Below, piece after piece: positions 13,641 through 23,881 of a stretch of DNA of 64,000 bases (positions are counted from its first letter, which is position 1; each line of letters begins with the position of its first letter). This DNA is from Escherichia coli (GTDB lineage: Bacteria; Pseudomonadota; Gammaproteobacteria; Enterobacterales; Enterobacteriaceae): the NCBI RefSeq assembly GCF_003334355.1, contig NZ_QOWP01000005.1. One strand, 5' to 3'. A program made the translations under genes and the position numbers. The notes beneath the pieces were generated by a model that saw only the letters and a list, made by a program, of their open reading frames with translations, made no database searches and was not told the DNA's origin.

Positions 13641-14513
13641 TTACAGCCACTCTACCCGCAACGACATCTCTGAAGTTGTTGATTCCCCTGGTGCTAGCGC
13701 AATGAGATCACCCCCTTCCGGGCGATGATGATCATCCGGCGCATGGCTCATCGGTTCCAGACAGAAGAAATCAAACGCATATCCTTTATCAAACGCAGGG
13801 TCGGAAACAAAGATGAAATAACACGGTGCAGGTGGCGTCGTTTCCATGATGATGGCATAACCTTCCTGCGGCTGCTCGATGCGGGCCTGACCATTCCATC
13901 CGGCAAAACCATTGTTCACCCACTGGCGCGGCAACGGCGCGGGCTGGTTAAAATCCAGTTCCTGCGGTAGCTGCTCGCAAAACTCACCCGCCAGCCACTG
14001 CTCCCGCTCCAGCCAGTAACCGCTCGCCTGTGCCTGAATCCGCGTTTGCGGCGACAACGGAAAATAAGGATGCCAGCCGGTACCAAATGGCAGCGTCTCT
14101 GCCCCTTGATTGGTGACAGAGAGCGTCACCGTCAGCGTATCCGCCGTTAAATGAAACGCCTGACTTACCCGATAGTGATAGACACCGCTGCGATGTTCAT
14201 ACACCAGACACAAACTATCATCGCTGTGCGAGACACATTGCCACTCGCCCAGCCAGCCATCGCCGTGTAGATAGTGCGCATCCCACTCAACATTCGGTTG
14301 CAGTTGATACTCACGCCCCTGCCAGACAAAACGATTGCCGCTCACCCGGTTTGCAAATGGCACCAGCGGAAAACATGAGGCATCGGTTGCCACACCGCTT
14401 TTTTTACCAGGACGTAAGAGCGGCGTCGTATCGCGCCAGAAGCCTTCGATTACGCCGCCCTGGTCAGAAACGTCCAGCTTTAGCGACCCGTGGGATAAGG
14501 TATAGATGGTCAT
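13641..14513 (-). CDS. yphB: Aldose 1-epimerase (mutarotase) family protein YphB (290 aa)
   Basis: ORF translation; galactose-mutarotase-like fold is my family assignment; synteny. Confidence 0.88.
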   Translation of the reverse strand: MTIYTLSHGSLKLDVSDQGGVIEGFWRDTTPLLRPGKKSGVATDASCFPLVPFANRVSGNRFVWQGREYQLQPNVEWDAHYLHGDGWLGEWQCVSHSDDSLCLVYEHRSGVYHYRVSQAFHLTADTLTVTLSVTNQGAETLPFGTGWHPYFPLSPQTRIQAQASGYWLEREQWLAGEFCEQLPQELDFNQPAPLPRQWVNNGFAGWNGQARIEQPQEGYAIIMETTPPAPCYFIFVSDPAFDKGYAFDFFCLEPMSHAPDDHHRPEGGDLIALAPGESTTSEMSLRVEWL

Positions 14514-14524
14514 CCGCTAACTCC

Positions 14525-15586
14525 TTAATCCGGGAAGTTAATCACAACTTTCCCGCATTTGCCGCTCGCCATCAGCGCATAGGCATCACCTGCCTGTTCC
14601 AGCGAGAAGCGATGGGTAATGGCGTTACGCGGCCACAGCTTCCAGTCCGTCAGATCATGGGCGCATTTTTCCATATGGAACAGACTGGTCACCCAGGAGC
14701 CGATAATCCGCCGTTGATGGTGCATCAGATCGGCGCTGACCTCGAATTCCACTTCTCCGGTTTCACCAATGTAAACCACCCGTCCCCAGTCAGCGGTGGA
14801 TTGCAGTGCCAGCAAGCGACCTGCGGCATTACCGGAACAATCGAGCGCAACATCCGCGCCACCGTGGGTGAGTTCGGCGATAATCTGCGGCAGACCTTCG
14901 GTGGTTGCTAAATAGCCGTGATCCATCACCCCTAACTGTTTTGCCATCGCCAGACGTTCCGGCAGCATATCAACGCCGATGATCCGTTTTGCACCGCGAC
15001 CTTTCGCCAGCATCATCGCCATCATGCCGACCGGCCCCAGACCGACCACCAGCACGTTATCGCTGCCGGAAACTTCGCCGCGCAAAATCCCTTCATAGGC
15101 CGTGCCAACGCCGCAACTGATAAACGCACCATCTTCGTAGCTCAGCGCATCCGGCAGGAGGATCAGATCTTTTTCTTCCGCCAGCAGATATTCGGCATGA
15201 CCGCCGTCACGCTGCCAGCCGTAAGCCGCTTTTCCTTTGCCAGTACAAGAGATAGGAAAGCCGCGGCGGCAGTTCGGGCAAAAACCACAGCCAGAAATGT
15301 GATACACCAGCACGCGGTCGCCCTCTTTAAAATGGCGGCAGCCTTGCCCCATCGCCACAATCTGCCCGCACGGTTCATGACCGTTGATAAATCCTTGGTA
15401 TAACGGTTTGTCGGGTGCCGCTGCCGTAGCGCGGTGCTGGTGGTAGATATAGTGGACATCGCTTCCGCAAATTCCGGAAGATTTCATTTTGATCAGTACC
15501 TGGTTAATCCCTGGTGTCGGCACCGCAACTTCCCGTAGATCGACGGTCGAATTTCCTGGTAAATAAGCTGCCAGCATCGTTTTCAT
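14525..15586 (-). CDS. yphC: Zn-dependent alcohol/polyol dehydrogenase family protein YphC (353 aa)
   Basis: ORF 14525..15619 trimmed to MKTMLAAYLP start (ATG complement 15584-15586) preceded by GAGGG; GHEPCG zinc motif and GLGPVG NAD motif. Confidence 0.88.
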   Translation of the reverse strand: MKTMLAAYLPGNSTVDLREVAVPTPGINQVLIKMKSSGICGSDVHYIYHQHRATAAAPDKPLYQGFINGHEPCGQIVAMGQGCRHFKEGDRVLVYHISGCGFCPNCRRGFPISCTGKGKAAYGWQRDGGHAEYLLAEEKDLILLPDALSYEDGAFISCGVGTAYEGILRGEVSGSDNVLVVGLGPVGMMAMMLAKGRGAKRIIGVDMLPERLAMAKQLGVMDHGYLATTEGLPQIIAELTHGGADVALDCSGNAAGRLLALQSTADWGRVVYIGETGEVEFEVSADLMHHQRRIIGSWVTSLFHMEKCAHDLTDWKLWPRNAITHRFSLEQAGDAYALMASGKCGKVVINFPD

Positions 15587-22200: not shown

Positions 22201-22663
22201 GATGGTGTTGCGGCCAGTTAAACTCAATCCCGCCAGAGATCCACGGTCCCAGCAGCCCCACCAGCGCAGGTTTAATGACTTCATTGTGATAGACAAAATC
22301 GCGCTGTTTCACTTTATCCCATGCGCGATGCACCCGACCGCCCAGTTCCGGCAGGATCATCACTTTGATGTAGTCGTTTTCCAGCCACACCGCCTGCCAG
22401 GATTTCAGGGTTTTCTGTTCACTCAGCGTATCGGTCACGCCGTAGGGATAAACCGCGCCGGACGATCCCTGATAAACGCGATTTTCCAGGAACATGGGAT
22501 GTATATCCTGCGGCCCGGTTTCATAGGTCGGGATCTCAACGCGCTCTTGCCACACTTTTACTGGAGTCATGGTGCCCTCAATATTAACAAGACATACTGA
22601 ATTAAAAGATTTGTGGCAGTGTATTGAACAATCTGGCAATGTTTTCGCGGAATAATCACGCAA
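19289..22663 (-). CDS. yphG: Large TPR-repeat protein YphG of unknown function (ORF 1124 aa; the true start may be the internal ATG at 22568-22570)
   Basis: Long uninterrupted ORF; C-terminal half rich in TPR-like repeats; synteny between yphF and yphH. Confidence 0.85.
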   Translation of the reverse strand: MRDYSAKTLPDCSIHCHKSFNSVCLVNIEGTMTPVKVWQERVEIPTYETGPQDIHPMFLENRVYQGSSGAVYPYGVTDTLSEQKTLKSWQAVWLENDYIKVMILPELGGRVHRAWDKVKQRDFVYHNEVIKPALVGLLGPWISGGIEFNWPQHHRPTTFMPVDFTLEAHEDGAQTVWVGETEPMHGLQVMTGFTLRPDRAALEIASRVYNGNATPRHFLWWANPAVKGGEGHQSVFPPDVTAVFDHGKRAVSAFPIATGTYYKVDYSAGVDISRYKNVPVPTSYMAEKSQYDFVGAWCHDEDGGLLHVANHHIAPGKKQWSWGHSEFGQAWDKSLTDNNGPYIELMTGIFADNQPDFTWLDAYEEKRFEQYFLPYHSLGMVQNASRDAVIKLQRSERGIEWGLYAISPLNGYRLAIREIGKCNALLDDAVALMPATAIQGVLHGINPERLTIELSDADGNIVLSYQEHQPQELPLPDVAKAPLAAQDITSTDEAWFIGQHLEQYHHASRSPFDYYLRGVALDPLDYRCNLALAMLEYNRADFPQAVAYATQALKRAHALNKNPQCGQASLIRASAYERQGQYQQAEEDFWRAVWSGNSKAGGYYGLARLAARNGNFDAGLDFCQQSLRACPTNQEVLCLHNLLLVLSGRQDNARLQREKLLRDYPLNATLWWLNWFDGRSESALAQWRGLCQGRDVNALMTAGQLINWGMPTLAAEMLNALDCQRTLPLYLQASLLPKAERGELVAKAIDVFPQFVRFPNTLEEVAALESIEECWFARHLLACFYYNKRSYNKAIALWQRCVEMSPEFADGWRGLAIHAWNKQHDYELAARYLDNAYQLAPQDARLLFERDLLDKLSGATPEKRLARLENNQEIALKRDDMTAELLNLWHLTGQADKAADILATRKFHPWEGGEGKVTSQFILNQLLRAWQHLDAREPQQASELLHAALHYPENLSEGRLPGQTDNDIWFWQAICANAQGDETEAMRCLRLAATGDRTINIHSYYNDQPVDYLFWQGMALRLLGEQQTAQQLFSEMKQWAQEMAKTSIEADFFAVSQPDLLSLYGDLQQQHKEKCLMVAMLASAGLGEVAQYESARAELTAINPAWPKAALFTTVMPFIFNYVH

Positions 22664-22687
22664 TTAACTAAACAAGGTTTAGTGAAG

Positions 22688-23881
22688 ATGAGAGCCTGCA
22701 TTAACAACCAACAGATTCGCCACCATAACAAATGCGTGATTCTGGAACTGCTGTACCGGCAAAAGCGCGCCAATAAATCAACGCTGGCCCGGCTGGCGCA
22801 AATTTCGATTCCGGCAGTCAGTAATATTTTGCAGGAACTGGAAAGCGAAAAACGGGTGGTGAATATCGACGATGAAAGCCAGACGCGCGGGCATAGTAGC
22901 GGTACATGGCTGATTGCGCCGGAAGGTGACTGGACGCTGTGTCTGAACGTGACGCCCACCAGTATTGAGTGTCAGGTTGCTAATGCTTGTTTAAGTCCGA
23001 AAGGTGAATTTGAGTATTTACAGATTGATGCACCGACGCCGCAGGCGCTGCTGTCCGAAATCGAAAAATGCTGGCATCGCCACCGTAAATTGTGGCCGGA
23101 CCGCACCATCAATCTGGCGCTGGCAATCCACGGTCAGGTTGATCCGGTGACCGGCGTATCGCAAACCATGCCGCAAGCGCCGTGGACAACGCCGGTTGAG
23201 GTGAAGTATCTGCTGGAAGAGAAGCTGGGCATTCGGGTGATGGTCGATAATGACTGCGTGATGCTGGCGCTGGCGGAGAAATGGCAAAATAATTCGCAGG
23301 AACGGGATTTCTGCGTGATCAACGTTGATTACGGCATTGGCTCGTCGTTCGTGATTAACGAGCAAATTTATCGCGGCAGTTTGTATGGTAGCGGACAGAT
23401 TGGTCACACCATCGTTAATCCGGATGGCGTCGTCTGCGACTGTGGACGTTACGGCTGCCTGGAAACCGTCGCCTCGTTAAGTGCATTAAAAAAACAGGCG
23501 CGGGTATGGCTAAAATCACAACCGGTTAATACTCAGCTTGATCCTGAAAAACTGACAACCGCGCAGTTAATCGCTGCCTGGCAGAGTGGAGAACCGTGGA
23601 TCACCAGCTGGGTTGATCGCTCTGCCAATGCCATTGGTTTGAGTCTGTATAACTTCCTCAACATCCTCAATATTAATCAGATTTGGTTGTACGGTCGCAG
23701 TTGTGCCTTTGGTGAGAACTGGCTTAATACTATTATTCGCCAGACAGGATTTAACCCGTTCGACCGCGACGAAGGACCGAGCGTGAAAGCGACGCAAATT
23801 GGCTTTGGGCAATTAAGCCGCGCACAACAGGTGCTGGGAATTGGCTATTTGTATGTTGAGGCGCAGTTACGACAGATTTGA
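22688..23881 (+). CDS. yphH: ROK (NagC/XylR) family transcriptional regulator YphH (397 aa)
   Basis: ORF 22682..23881 (GTG) trimmed to ATG at 22688; N-terminal HTH, ROK motif DNDCVMLALAE and CDCGRYGC zinc motif. Confidence 0.88.
   Translation: MRACINNQQIRHHNKCVILELLYRQKRANKSTLARLAQISIPAVSNILQELESEKRVVNIDDESQTRGHSSGTWLIAPEGDWTLCLNVTPTSIECQVANACLSPKGEFEYLQIDAPTPQALLSEIEKCWHRHRKLWPDRTINLALAIHGQVDPVTGVSQTMPQAPWTTPVEVKYLLEEKLGIRVMVDNDCVMLALAEKWQNNSQERDFCVINVDYGIGSSFVINEQIYRGSLYGSGQIGHTIVNPDGVVCDCGRYGCLETVASLSALKKQARVWLKSQPVNTQLDPEKLTTAQLIAAWQSGEPWITSWVDRSANAIGLSLYNFLNILNINQIWLYGRSCAFGENWLNTIIRQTGFNPFDRDEGPSVKATQIGFGQLSRAQQVLGIGYLYVEAQLRQI

Follow-up and report, generated by a model that had tools for sequence, protein, structure and literature searches.

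The yph locus of Escherichia coli as a candidate ROK-repressed sugar-utilisation module with YphG at its core and a permease gene interrupted in this strain

The window analysed here is a 64,000-nt stretch of Escherichia coli DNA, in which yphH is divergent from yphG-yphFEDCB (Table 1). The open reading frames given for yphB, yphC, yphE, yphF and yphH in the initial annotation were found on the same strands, and the family assignments of their products hold, as judged from identity to PDB 3NRE, NCBIfam and PDB matches, and the HTH and ROK motif. Each of the 5,426 complete E. coli genomes matches the yph stretch; in 5,371, a single place accounts for 80% or more of it. The stretch is collinear with strain 81 (6 bases different) and with MG1655 (171 bases different). 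All yph genes are under purifying selection (dN/dS 0.008-0.19), and the most constrained proteins by far are YphC and YphD (dN/dS 0.008-0.04), which are 90% identical between E. coli and Budvicia. No yph protein reaches an NCBIfam equivalog cutoff, and the E. coli-type locus contains no glycosidase gene.

Table 1. Genes and sequence features of the yph locus (positions in the window)
Feature	Position	Strand	Product length	Description
yphB	13641-14513	-	290 aa	ORF; small aldose-1-epimerase
yphC	14525-15619	-	364 aa	ORF; Zn-dependent medium-chain dehydrogenase, polyol-dehydrogenase/Tdh type
yphD	15652-16650	-		single CUT2-type permease (RbsC/AraH-like), interrupted in the window
premature TGA	16213-16215	-		yphD codon 146; GGA (Gly) in other strains
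yphE	16675-18186	-	503 aa	ORF; ABC ATPase with two ATP-binding cassettes
yphF	18209-19192	-	327 aa	ORF; periplasmic sugar-binding protein, signal peptide
hairpin	19246-19268	-		TGAGCGGCA-N5-TGCCGCTCA; yphG-yphF spacer; perfect 9-nt inverted repeat
box 2	19274-19296	-		23-bp operator-like TTCACTAAACCCTATTAACTGTA; overlaps yphG stop codon, upstream of yphF
yphG	19289-22570	-	1,093 aa	cytoplasmic; DUF5107/aldose-1-epimerase-fold beta domains and TPR solenoid
box 3	22579-22601	-		weaker related TTCAGTATGTCTTGTTAATATTG; 9-31 nt upstream of yphG start, overlaps ribosome-binding site
invariant block	22656-22664	-		ATTGCGTGA; adjoins box 1
box 1	22664-22686	-		23-bp palindrome TTCACTAAAC-CTT-GTTTAGTTAA; ends 2 nt before yphH start codon
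yphH	22688-23881	+	397 aa (RefSeq start)	ROK-family repressor candidate

YphB is identical over its full length to the aldose 1-epimerase in PDB 3NRE (E 5e-210), its translation contains the mutarotase-type motifs HYLHGDG, GWHPYF and FCLEP, and the dN/dS of its gene against E. albertii is 0.07. YphC carries the motifs GICGSD and GHEPCG, the structural-Zn motif CGFCPNCRRGFPISC and the Rossmann motif GLGPVG; an Asp follows beta-2 (GVD), and the sequence suggests that its cofactor is probably NAD. Its top NCBIfam matches are Tdh (172 bits) and IolM (169 bits), both under cutoff, its top PDB matches are ADH, xylitol DH, Tdh, sorbitol DH and GatD (about 100-130 bits), and the dN/dS of yphC is 0.008. 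YphE matches AraG (454 bits), XylG (434), AlsA (422) and MglA (415), all at full length and under the equivalog cutoffs. YphF, a cluster-B sugar-binding protein with the signal peptide MPKKMRTTRNLLLMATLLGSALFARA at its N-terminus, shows weak NCBIfam matches of 44-64 bits to allose, MglB, LsrB, rhizopine and ribose binding proteins, and its top PDB match is 5HSG (89 bits). The YphC models (Tdh, IolM, xylitol/sorbitol DH) and the weak rhizopine and allose matches of YphF also fit a polyol or cyclitol.

The locus had been described as encoding a complete ABC transporter, which is not borne out, as its only permease gene, yphD, carries an in-frame TGA. Base 16215 of the window is A where strain 81 has C, which turns GGA into TGA and yields two ORFs of 145 and 186 aa; an in-frame ATG (Met147) directly follows the stop, and the translation reads ...WSALR*MGLF.... 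In NCBIfam, one ORF matches the N-terminal half and the other the C-terminal half of the RbsC, AraH and YjfF models. Strain 81, PRO_A-1412, MG1655 and E. albertii all have an uninterrupted yphD, and codon 146 encodes Gly in annotated E. coli and E. albertii. An 81-nt probe over the TGA matched 3,132 complete genomes, every full-length match with one mismatch, and the TGA occurs in none of these 3,132 comparable genomes. A yphD identical to that of the window, TGA included, is present in Logan ERR4578542, and the same TGA lies on two further haplotypes (an ENA metagenome and GCA_049980845.1). Public assemblies also contain two independent +1 frameshifts in yphD and the nonsense change E106* in yphB, and IS1 and IS421 insertions lie within the locus in two complete genomes. 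Because the sole permease gene carries a premature TGA, ABC uptake is probably lost in this window, unless both halves of YphD are made and assemble.

The ATG at position 22570, supported by RefSeq and by the N-termini of 79 homologues, gives a YphG of 1,093 aa; the 1,124 aa reported initially correspond to a mechanical ORF from a TTG at 22663. YphG had been called a TPR-rich protein of unknown function. Besides the TPR solenoid (about residues 460-1093), the protein has an N-terminal half (about 1-440) of DUF5107/aldose-1-epimerase-fold beta domains, which this description left out. The aldose-1-epimerase-fold domain is predicted with high confidence and is fused to a TPR solenoid of about 650 aa. 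Invariant polar residues are found in both halves. About 110 positions of the protein do not vary, beta domains from different phyla share 54% identity or more, and this conservation includes clusters of His, Glu and Asp. YphG has no domain for binding DNA or nucleotides, and because nearly all 79 homologues lack a signal peptide, it is taken to be cytoplasmic. A profile-profile comparison gave a probability of only 1-2% against GalM and YphB alignments, and the kinship with mutarotases comes from structure only. Sequence and profile similarity to the aldose 1-epimerase superfamily (GalM, YihR, YeaD, YphB) is undetectable, and YphG differs from it by an extra beta domain and by the fused solenoid with its own invariant motifs. 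BDI_1685 of Parabacteroides distasonis (PDB 5CD6, a structural-genomics 'TPR-domain containing protein'), itself uncharacterised, shares 17-21% identity with YphG in structural alignments, but it has 575-580 aa and a much shorter helical part. 'Mutarotase-fold enzyme candidate' is a more fitting label for YphG than 'TPR protein'.

YphH, described as the third ROK repressor of E. coli and an uncharacterised one (PMC4288165), has an HTH at its N-terminus together with the ROK zinc motif GHTIV...CDCGRYGCLE; it matches the NCBIfam models Mlc (109 bits over residues 9-334) and NagC (112 bits), both far under cutoffs. Box 1 is an inverted repeat kept in 13 Enterobacterales and Aeromonas spacers and scores 25.3 bits with a PWM built without E. 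coli. Box 2 is the top match (32.8 bits) of the entire 64-kb window to a PWM built solely from the yphH-proximal boxes of other species, compared with maxima of 12.1 +/- 2.0 (highest 18.6) in shuffled windows, and its position also carries a box in Enterobacter R1 (25 bits), Budvicia (19 bits) and BIGb0383 (14 bits). Box 3 is the second-best match in its spacer, and 11 of 13 species share its orientation and its distance from box 1 (84-85 bp); its score of 6.8 bits in E. coli compares with 9-13 bits across most of the Citrobacter/Cedecea group, and per-species shuffle p values are 0.005-0.1. The conserved 23-bp palindromic box (box 1 and box 2) is probably the YphH operator. NagC and Mlc operators are likewise 23 bp and roughly palindromic, and repression by NagC involves a loop formed between two operators (PMC4288165). 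YphH shares with these regulators the ROK family, the winged HTH at the N-terminus and the zinc motif, and the divergent yph promoter region likewise holds more than one box. At positions +/-5,6, however, TA/TA in the YphH box takes the place of TT/AA, the only invariant bases of NagC/Mlc sites, and the YphH linker lacks the conserved GR (PMC4288165). The invariant block does not vary among the 13 aligned spacers, and on visual inspection it resembles a CRP site poorly. The hairpin, whose arms GAGCGGC/GCCGCTC are kept in five of six Enterobacterales yphG-yphF spacers, is not followed by a U-tract; it may serve to end or stabilise transcripts. A scan of both spacers turned up no sigma-70-like promoter by its criteria.

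YphG is the conserved core of a module spread over Proteobacteria, Bacteroidota and Bacillota. Among 79 related loci, 59 contain a sugar transporter, 59 an AraC or ROK regulator, and 45 at least one galactose-related gene (galactosidase, GalM or MelB): GH2 in 31, GalM in 11, GH35 in 7, GH36 in 4, GH97 in 3 and MelB in 3. A GalM or YphB-like gene is present in 24. Neighbours above their cutoffs include MelB (564 bits, cutoff 456) and GalM (304, cutoff 240); a GH97 retaining alpha-galactosidase scores 636 bits (cutoff 800), BT4151-like GH2 proteins score 594-787 (cutoff 1500), and one neighbour matches Pfam Melibiase (E 1e-154). In Citrobacter FP75, porin-GH36-MelB genes adjoin ROK-YphG-YphB and a 20-bit box lies upstream of melB; in Photobacterium, ROK-MelB-GH2 adjoins YphG. 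BT4151 and BT4156 are exo-beta-1,4-galactosidases of a Bacteroides RG-I pectin PUL (PMC8002723). The GH2 proteins beside YphG are most similar to the BT4151 model, yet they stay below its equivalog cutoff, and since the E. coli locus has no such GH2, the likeness speaks to the sugars of the relatives only. The galactose link is drawn from homologues 40-60% identical and from MFS-type loci; in most relatives a XylE-like MFS porter would take over from the ABC system.

The recurring gene sets, the purifying selection and the operator-like box at both ends of yphG support the initial view of a coherent, regulated locus for sugar uptake and catabolism; rather than being functionally unrelated, ROK, YphG, transporter and YphB genes co-occur in Enterobacterales, Aeromonas and Photobacterium. 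E. coli takes up and handles galactose with the MglBAC CUT2 ABC importer, GalP, GalM and the repressors GalR/GalS. The yph locus is similarly equipped with a periplasmic binder, a tandem ATPase, a single RbsC-type permease, an aldose-1-epimerase and a putative sugar-responsive repressor, and GalM and Mgl-like ABC genes adjoin YphG in other bacteria. Unlike the Mgl/GalM set, it has a ROK rather than a LacI-type regulator, lacks a kinase and a transferase, and adds YphG and a Zn dehydrogenase, while YphE, YphF and YphD fall under the MglA, MglB and MglC equivalog cutoffs.

Our best explanation, to which we give a probability of roughly 0.5, is a ROK-repressed sugar-utilisation module with cytoplasmic YphG as its conserved core and a galactose-configured monosaccharide as the best-guess substrate. 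YphH would bind the boxes and repress in both directions, possibly by NagC-like looping, until a sugar effector releases it. The substrate would be monosaccharide-sized because the partner transporter of YphG in Enterobacterales is a CUT2 ABC system or a XylE-like sugar porter (both in three loci); D-galactose is a candidate, and so are near relatives of it such as L-arabinopyranose, D-fucose, a ketose or the corresponding polyol. In E. coli, it would enter through YphF and the CUT2 system YphED. YphG, with a putative acid/base site at E116, H122/H123, H215 and E313, and the small mutarotase YphB would then act in the cytoplasm on the anomeric carbon or ring form, or catalyse an aldose-ketose step, and YphC would add a polyol/ketose or aldose oxidation in the E. 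coli-type locus only. The ABC and YphC arm of E. coli could serve another substrate than the galactose sugars of YphG relatives.

A glycoside-cleaving YphG, representing a new hydrolase-, phosphorylase- or lyase-like family in a module that imports a small galactoside, is conceivable but doubtful. The beta-supersandwich and the helical solenoid would have the active site between them, an arrangement known from GH15, GH65, GH94, GH95 and PL8-type enzymes. Once YphG had split the galactoside, the freed anomer would be equilibrated by YphB or GalM and the aglycone oxidised by YphC. It is improbable that YphC and the ABC importer are instead the centre of the E. coli-type locus, making it a route for polyols or cyclitols to which the galactoside context of distant YphG proteins is not transferable. 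An imported polyol or inositol-like compound would be oxidised by YphC, and the keto- or aldo-sugar product would pass to YphG and YphB. The position of YphC in the polyol-dehydrogenase/Tdh branch of Zn-MDRs (IolM; xylitol, sorbitol and L-iditol DH; GatD), the strong constraint on YphC and YphD, the rhizopine match of YphF and the recurrence of Zn-ADH genes near YphG in 8 loci of several phyla are consistent with this route, but the YphC and YphF similarities are all far under family cutoffs, and it is hard to see what a mutarotase-fold enzyme would do on a cyclitol. In addition, the ROK-YphG-YphB core occurs without YphC or an ABC system in Citrobacter, Cedecea and Hafnia, indicating that YphC is an add-on and not the centre. 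That YphG is a non-enzyme, a sugar-binding sensor or scaffold whose solenoid contacts the transporter or regulator, is very improbable given its enzyme-typical conservation and the absence of DNA-binding and nucleotide-binding domains. The least probable reading, a decaying relic now functionless in E. coli with the yphD stop as one symptom, draws on the lesions, the insertions and a searchable literature that reports no growth phenotype, but it is opposed by the presence of the locus in every complete genome, the absence of the TGA from the comparable ones, a dN/dS of 0.008-0.07 against E. albertii that reflects maintained long-term constraint, and the way the yphD and yphB lesions were found, by a targeted search for truncated products in a very large collection, where such lesions are expected of any dispensable gene.

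The initial description of a functionally unassigned, already annotated locus is supported: our literature search found no paper assigning a substrate or pathway to the cluster, and the searchable literature yielded no report of YphH DNA binding or a yph growth phenotype. YphH was still among the transcription factors of unknown function in 2022 (PMC9308461), yphFED is entered as 'Sugar, putative ABC transporter' in a 2023 review (PMC10305011), and every yph gene is labelled 'putative' in the MG1655 RefSeq record of September 2026. The natural loss-of-function alleles of yphD and yphB indicate that at least some strains can lose the ABC arm. The yph cluster is a known locus; the leads given here are new.

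ORF calling in the yphB-yphH region recovers six genes that run together on the minus strand and a seventh, divergent from them, on the plus strand, which RefSeq names yphB, yphC, yphD, yphE, yphF, yphG and yphH and which are flanked by yphA/hca and glyA/hmp. All 5,426 complete E. coli genomes match the locus; it differs from that of strain 81 at 6 bases and from that of MG1655 at 171, with no indels. The match in all complete genomes and the RefSeq annotation therefore show a real, known and annotated locus, as the initial annotation had stated. Its description as a coherent, regulated sugar locus with no assigned substrate also stands. 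The open-access main texts searched contain no substrate, regulon or phenotype for the yph locus; YphH was still among the transcription factors of unknown function in 2022 (PMC9308461), and a 2023 review calls yphFED a 'putative' sugar transporter (PMC10305011). An Rfam scan of 12000-26000 detects no known RNA. A REP-like 16-nt inverted repeat (ATGCCGGATGCGGCGT / ACGCCTTATCCGGCAT) occupies the 47-bp gap between the convergent yphA and yphB. IS1A lies between yphG and yphF in the closest complete genome (L002; NZ_CM136169.1, 6528-7225), where the annotated yphF is shortened, and IS421 lies within the locus in one further complete genome (H16; NZ_CM177011.1).

Coordinates of features in and around the yphB-yphH locus
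Feature	Coordinates	Strand	Remark
Region compared for the XylE-like porter	13100-13640		beside yphB
REP-like inverted repeat	13599-13632		yphA-yphB gap
yphB-yphH locus	13641-23881		
yphC	14525-15619	minus	
yphD	15652-16650	minus	
yphD stop (TGA)	16213-16215	minus	codon 146
Hairpin	19246-19268		yphG-yphF spacer
Box 2	19274-19296		yphG stop, upstream of yphF; 32.8 bits
yphG	19289-22570	minus	RefSeq ATG at 22570
Box 3	22579-22601		over the yphG ribosome-binding site
ATTGCGTGA block	22656-22664		beside box 1
TTG of the longer yphG ORF	22663	minus	
Box 1	22664-22686		ends 2 nt before the yphH start; 25.3 bits
yphH	22688-23881	plus	

The RefSeq start of yphG gives a protein of 1,093 aa, and YphG homologues start at a conserved M..VKVWQE..IPTY, with no conserved N-terminal extension and no signal peptide. 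The length of 1,124 aa reported initially comes from a mechanical ORF beginning at an upstream TTG and is corrected by these starts. Pfam assigns DUF5107, not Aldose_epim, to residues 39-324 and also finds scattered TPRs, and the C-terminal half is identified as TPR by TPR_16 (E 3e-6 and 4e-4) and by consensus-TPR PDB chains (E 2e-35). An AlphaFold model based on 56 diverse sequences (pLDDT 94.7, pTM 0.93) predicts beta domains to about residue 440 and an all-helical region at 460-1093, and the predicted N-domain has the fold of the aldose 1-epimerase superfamily. Profile-profile comparison of this domain by hhalign gives probabilities of 1.0% against the GalM alignment and 2.4% against the YphB alignment, and homology is not detected. 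Of the two checks initially proposed for YphG, structure prediction yields a mutarotase-fold N-domain and a helical C-terminal half, and the profile-profile search yields no GalM or YphB signal; the tie of YphG to mutarotases is structural only.

In a PDB profile search, the only match to the YphG N-domain is 5CD6 (BDI_1685 of Parabacteroides distasonis, a structural-genomics entry), and an AFDB50 search matches solely unnamed DUF5107 proteins. The family contains 1,159 cluster representatives (50% identity) at E <= 1e-30, mostly of ~1,100 aa. Across phyla, N-domain identity does not fall below 54%, and ~110 columns are invariant. H122/H123, H215 and E313 show little or no variation in the alignment, their catalytic equivalence to GalM residues being putative, and E116, H123, H215 and E313 are kept even in 5CD6. 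Invariant residues are also present in the helical half, as is an FHPWEGGEG motif. So high a degree of conservation suggests that YphG is an enzyme whose active site is composite, and not a scaffold.

We scanned one genome per species and found 80 loci with YphG homologues, spanning Proteobacteria, Bacteroidota, Bacillota, Bifidobacteriaceae and Spirochaetales. Genes within 10 kb were counted at the 79 loci whose YphG was recovered by ORF calling, with the ORFs clustered and recurrent clusters named by NCBIfam and Pfam. A XylE-like MFS sugar porter and an AraC regulator are each present at 45 of the 79 loci, and a GH2 enzyme most similar to the BT4151 exo-β-1,4-galactosidase at 31, followed by a ROK regulator (14), a YphB-like mutarotase (13), CUT2 ABC genes (11-13), SusC/SusD (12), GalM (11), Zn-ADH (8), GH35 (7), sulfatases (6), GH36 (4), GH97 α-galactosidase (3) and MelB (3). 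A transporter is found at 59 of these loci, AraC or ROK likewise at 59, and at least one galactosidase, GalM or MelB at 45. At one shared chromosomal position, the Enterobacterales carry either ROK<>YphG-SBP-ATPase-permease-ZnADH-YphB, in some cases with the MFS porter behind it, or ROK<>YphG-MFS-YphB; the former, without the porter, is the arrangement in E. coli and E. albertii. From these counts and the two arrangements, regulator, transporter, YphG and mutarotase make up the conserved core, and both interchangeable transporter types (CUT2 ABC and XylE-like MFS) are monosaccharide carriers. Galactose-configured sugars are the theme that recurs in YphG loci. In Citrobacter sp. FP75 the ROK gene adjoins a porin, a GH36 melibiase and MelB, and a Photobacterium ROK/YphG module has MelB and GH2 as neighbours; by their gene context, these two gammaproteobacterial relatives link the module directly with galactosides.

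Other Enterobacterales (compared loci L007, L008, L010 and L014-L022) have the XylE-like porter after yphB or yphG, and beyond the locus they carry hcaT and csiE; in E. coli the place next to yphB is taken by yphA and the hca operon. In marine Flavobacteriia (L026, L040, L051, L055 and L080), the neighbours of YphG are one or two GH2 genes, GH30-like genes, sulfatases and an SGNH esterase, and this resembles a form of the module adapted to sulfated galactans. The genes downstream of YphG in Bacillota are not conserved and include toxin-antitoxin genes and two-component systems. Three Bacillota loci (L023, L039 and L066) have an SDR, an IlvD/Edd-family dehydratase and an RraA-like aldolase near GalM, a Mgl-like ABC transporter, AraC and YphG. 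This dehydratase scores 677 bits with the dihydroxy-acid dehydratase model and 452 bits with the L-arabinonate dehydratase model, and the gene set suggests an oxidative, non-phosphorylative sugar route beside the YphG module.

YphB aligns along its entire length with the aldose 1-epimerase structure 3NRE (E 5e-210) and has the mutarotase beta-sandwich fold; it scores 40.8 bits with the curated equivalog PRK15172 aldose-1-epimerase, whose cutoff is 251. Its translation contains the His/His/Glu motifs HYLHGDG, GWHPYF and FCLEP, which we take to be catalytic after GalM H104, H175 and E309. YphC has the catalytic Zn ligands (Cys, His-Glu), a four-Cys structural Zn site and a GxGxxG Rossmann motif, seen in translation as GICGSD, GHEPCG, CGFCPNCRRGFPISC and GLGPVG, and the Asp that accompanies the Rossmann motif suggests the use of NAD. 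The models and structures closest to YphC are those of threonine, inosose, xylitol, sorbitol and galactitol-1-phosphate dehydrogenases, with scores far under the family cutoffs (bits/cutoff: Tdh 172/380, IolM 169/450, GatD 108/550, IdnD 90/469). The fused two-cassette ATPase YphE, the RbsC/AraH-type permease YphD and the cluster-B binding protein YphF, which has a signal peptide, show the arrangement of a CUT2 monosaccharide ABC importer. All three score under every cutoff of the ara, xyl, als, mgl, ytf, rbs and lsr equivalogs. YphF increases 3- to 4.6-fold on levoglucosan versus fructose, together with XylF, MalE, MglA, YtfQ and UgpB (PMC8753852); because these proteins rise alike, we read the increase as general catabolite derepression and reject levoglucosan as a specific lead for YphF.

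The initial annotation described the ABC transporter as complete, which does not hold for this strain, whose permease frame is broken: yphD translates as ...WSALR*MGLF..., with an in-frame TGA. Window base 16215 is A, versus C in strain 81, and this change turns GGA (Gly) into TGA. Gly occupies the codon in E. albertii, whose yphD is intact by tblastn, and in annotated E. coli genomes. The yphD of this strain is probably a permease-null allele, so that phenotypes of the locus are not expected here. An in-frame ATG (Met147) directly follows the stop, and two half-permeases could conceivably arise if translation terminated and re-initiated at Met147. Complete E. coli genomes contain no match to a 51-nt probe with the change at its centre, and an 81-nt probe of the stop matches 3,132 complete genomes, with exactly one mismatch in all full-length matches. 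Exact look-ups of the two truncated products in public assembly collections lead us to reject a private mutation, as publicly available draft and metagenome assemblies carry the allele too, on three or more haplotypes. The Logan run ERR4578542 has an identical yphD, TGA included, and an ENA metagenome and GCA_049980845.1 have the TGA on two more haplotypes (10-11 differences). These public copies show that the stop is not an artefact of the window. Selenocysteine insertion or programmed readthrough at the TGA is rejected because other strains have Gly (GGA) there. Further null alleles of the locus in public assemblies (L091, L092 and L093) are a pair of distinct +1 frameshifts in yphD, close to nt 374 and to nt 383, and the yphB nonsense change E106* (G316T), which GCA_049980845.1 combines with the TGA. 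The TGA on several haplotypes and the frameshifts therefore show that null alleles of the permease are recurrent, though rare.

All yph genes have dN/dS values of 0.008-0.19 in comparisons with E. albertii, Enterobacter sp. and Budvicia, YphC and YphD being the most constrained (0.008 for YphC versus E. albertii). Identity to the Budvicia proteins is ~90% for YphC, 66% for YphG and 58% for YphB, and normal synonymous divergence indicates constraint on YphC rather than recent transfer. Long-term selection has kept the locus, even though null alleles and IS insertions occur now and then.

The YphH translation contains an HTH at its N-terminus and the zinc motif of ROK proteins (C-x-C-G-x2-G-C-x-E; here CDCGRYGCLE), and YphH matches the Mlc model over residues 9-334. 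Its scores of 112 bits with NagC (cutoff 650) and 109 bits with Mlc (cutoff 530) do not identify it as an ortholog of either, and it has been placed in a separate small clade as the third, uncharacterised ROK repressor of E. coli (PMC4288165). The yphH-yphG spacers of 13 species have in common a 23-bp palindrome, TTCACTAAAC-N3-GTTwAsTnwA (box 1). A PWM built from 11 non-Escherichia sites was scanned over the whole 64-kb window, and its two best matches are boxes 2 and 1; the next best match elsewhere reaches 12.1 bits, and the maxima of 100 shuffles are 12.1 ± 2.0, the highest being 18.6. Box 2 is kept at the yphG-yphF junction in other ABC-type loci, alongside a GAGCGGC/GCCGCTC hairpin. Box 3, a weaker relative 84-85 bp from box 1, is present in 11 of the 13 species, and a 20-bit box lies upstream of melB in Citrobacter FP75. 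We infer that the 23-bp boxes are YphH operators, a strong prediction for the yph locus. They share the 23-bp format of NagC/Mlc operators but differ from them in sequence; NagC represses via looping between two operators (PMC4288165).

Consensus scans for promoters and terminators do not exceed the site counts of shuffles and place no site in the two spacers; no consensus σ70 promoter is detected. The hairpin in the yphG-yphF spacer has a perfect 9-bp stem with arms conserved in related Enterobacterales, and it is not a canonical terminator because no U-tract follows. The ATTGCGTGA block is identical in 13 of 13 aligned yphH-yphG spacers and may be an element of a promoter or half of an activator site; a CRP site there is dismissed, with just one half-site-like match found by eye.

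Taken with the predicted structure, these data make YphG a candidate mutarotase-fold enzyme that forms the conserved core of a widely distributed module. A more speculative reading, to which we give a probability of about 35%, is that YphG/DUF5107 founds an enzyme family in which a TPR solenoid clamps a mutarotase-fold catalytic domain. The enzyme would carry out an unrecognised cytoplasmic step (ring-form, anomer or aldose-ketose) on galactose-configured sugars from dietary and algal galactosides, conserved from E. coli to gut Bacteroidota and Lachnospiraceae and under a new ROK operator in the Enterobacterales. The exact substrate of the locus and the reaction of YphG are putative; the testable leads are galactose-configured monosaccharides, their polyols or ketoses as the substrate class, the candidate catalytic residues of YphG and the coordinates of the predicted operator. 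The yphB-yphH locus is among the still unassigned sugar loci of the best-studied bacterium, and to it this analysis adds a truncated permease, YphG as enzyme candidate and module core, a galactose-type link and an operator prediction. The YphG family, very large and without a characterised member, is common in gut and soil polysaccharide degraders.
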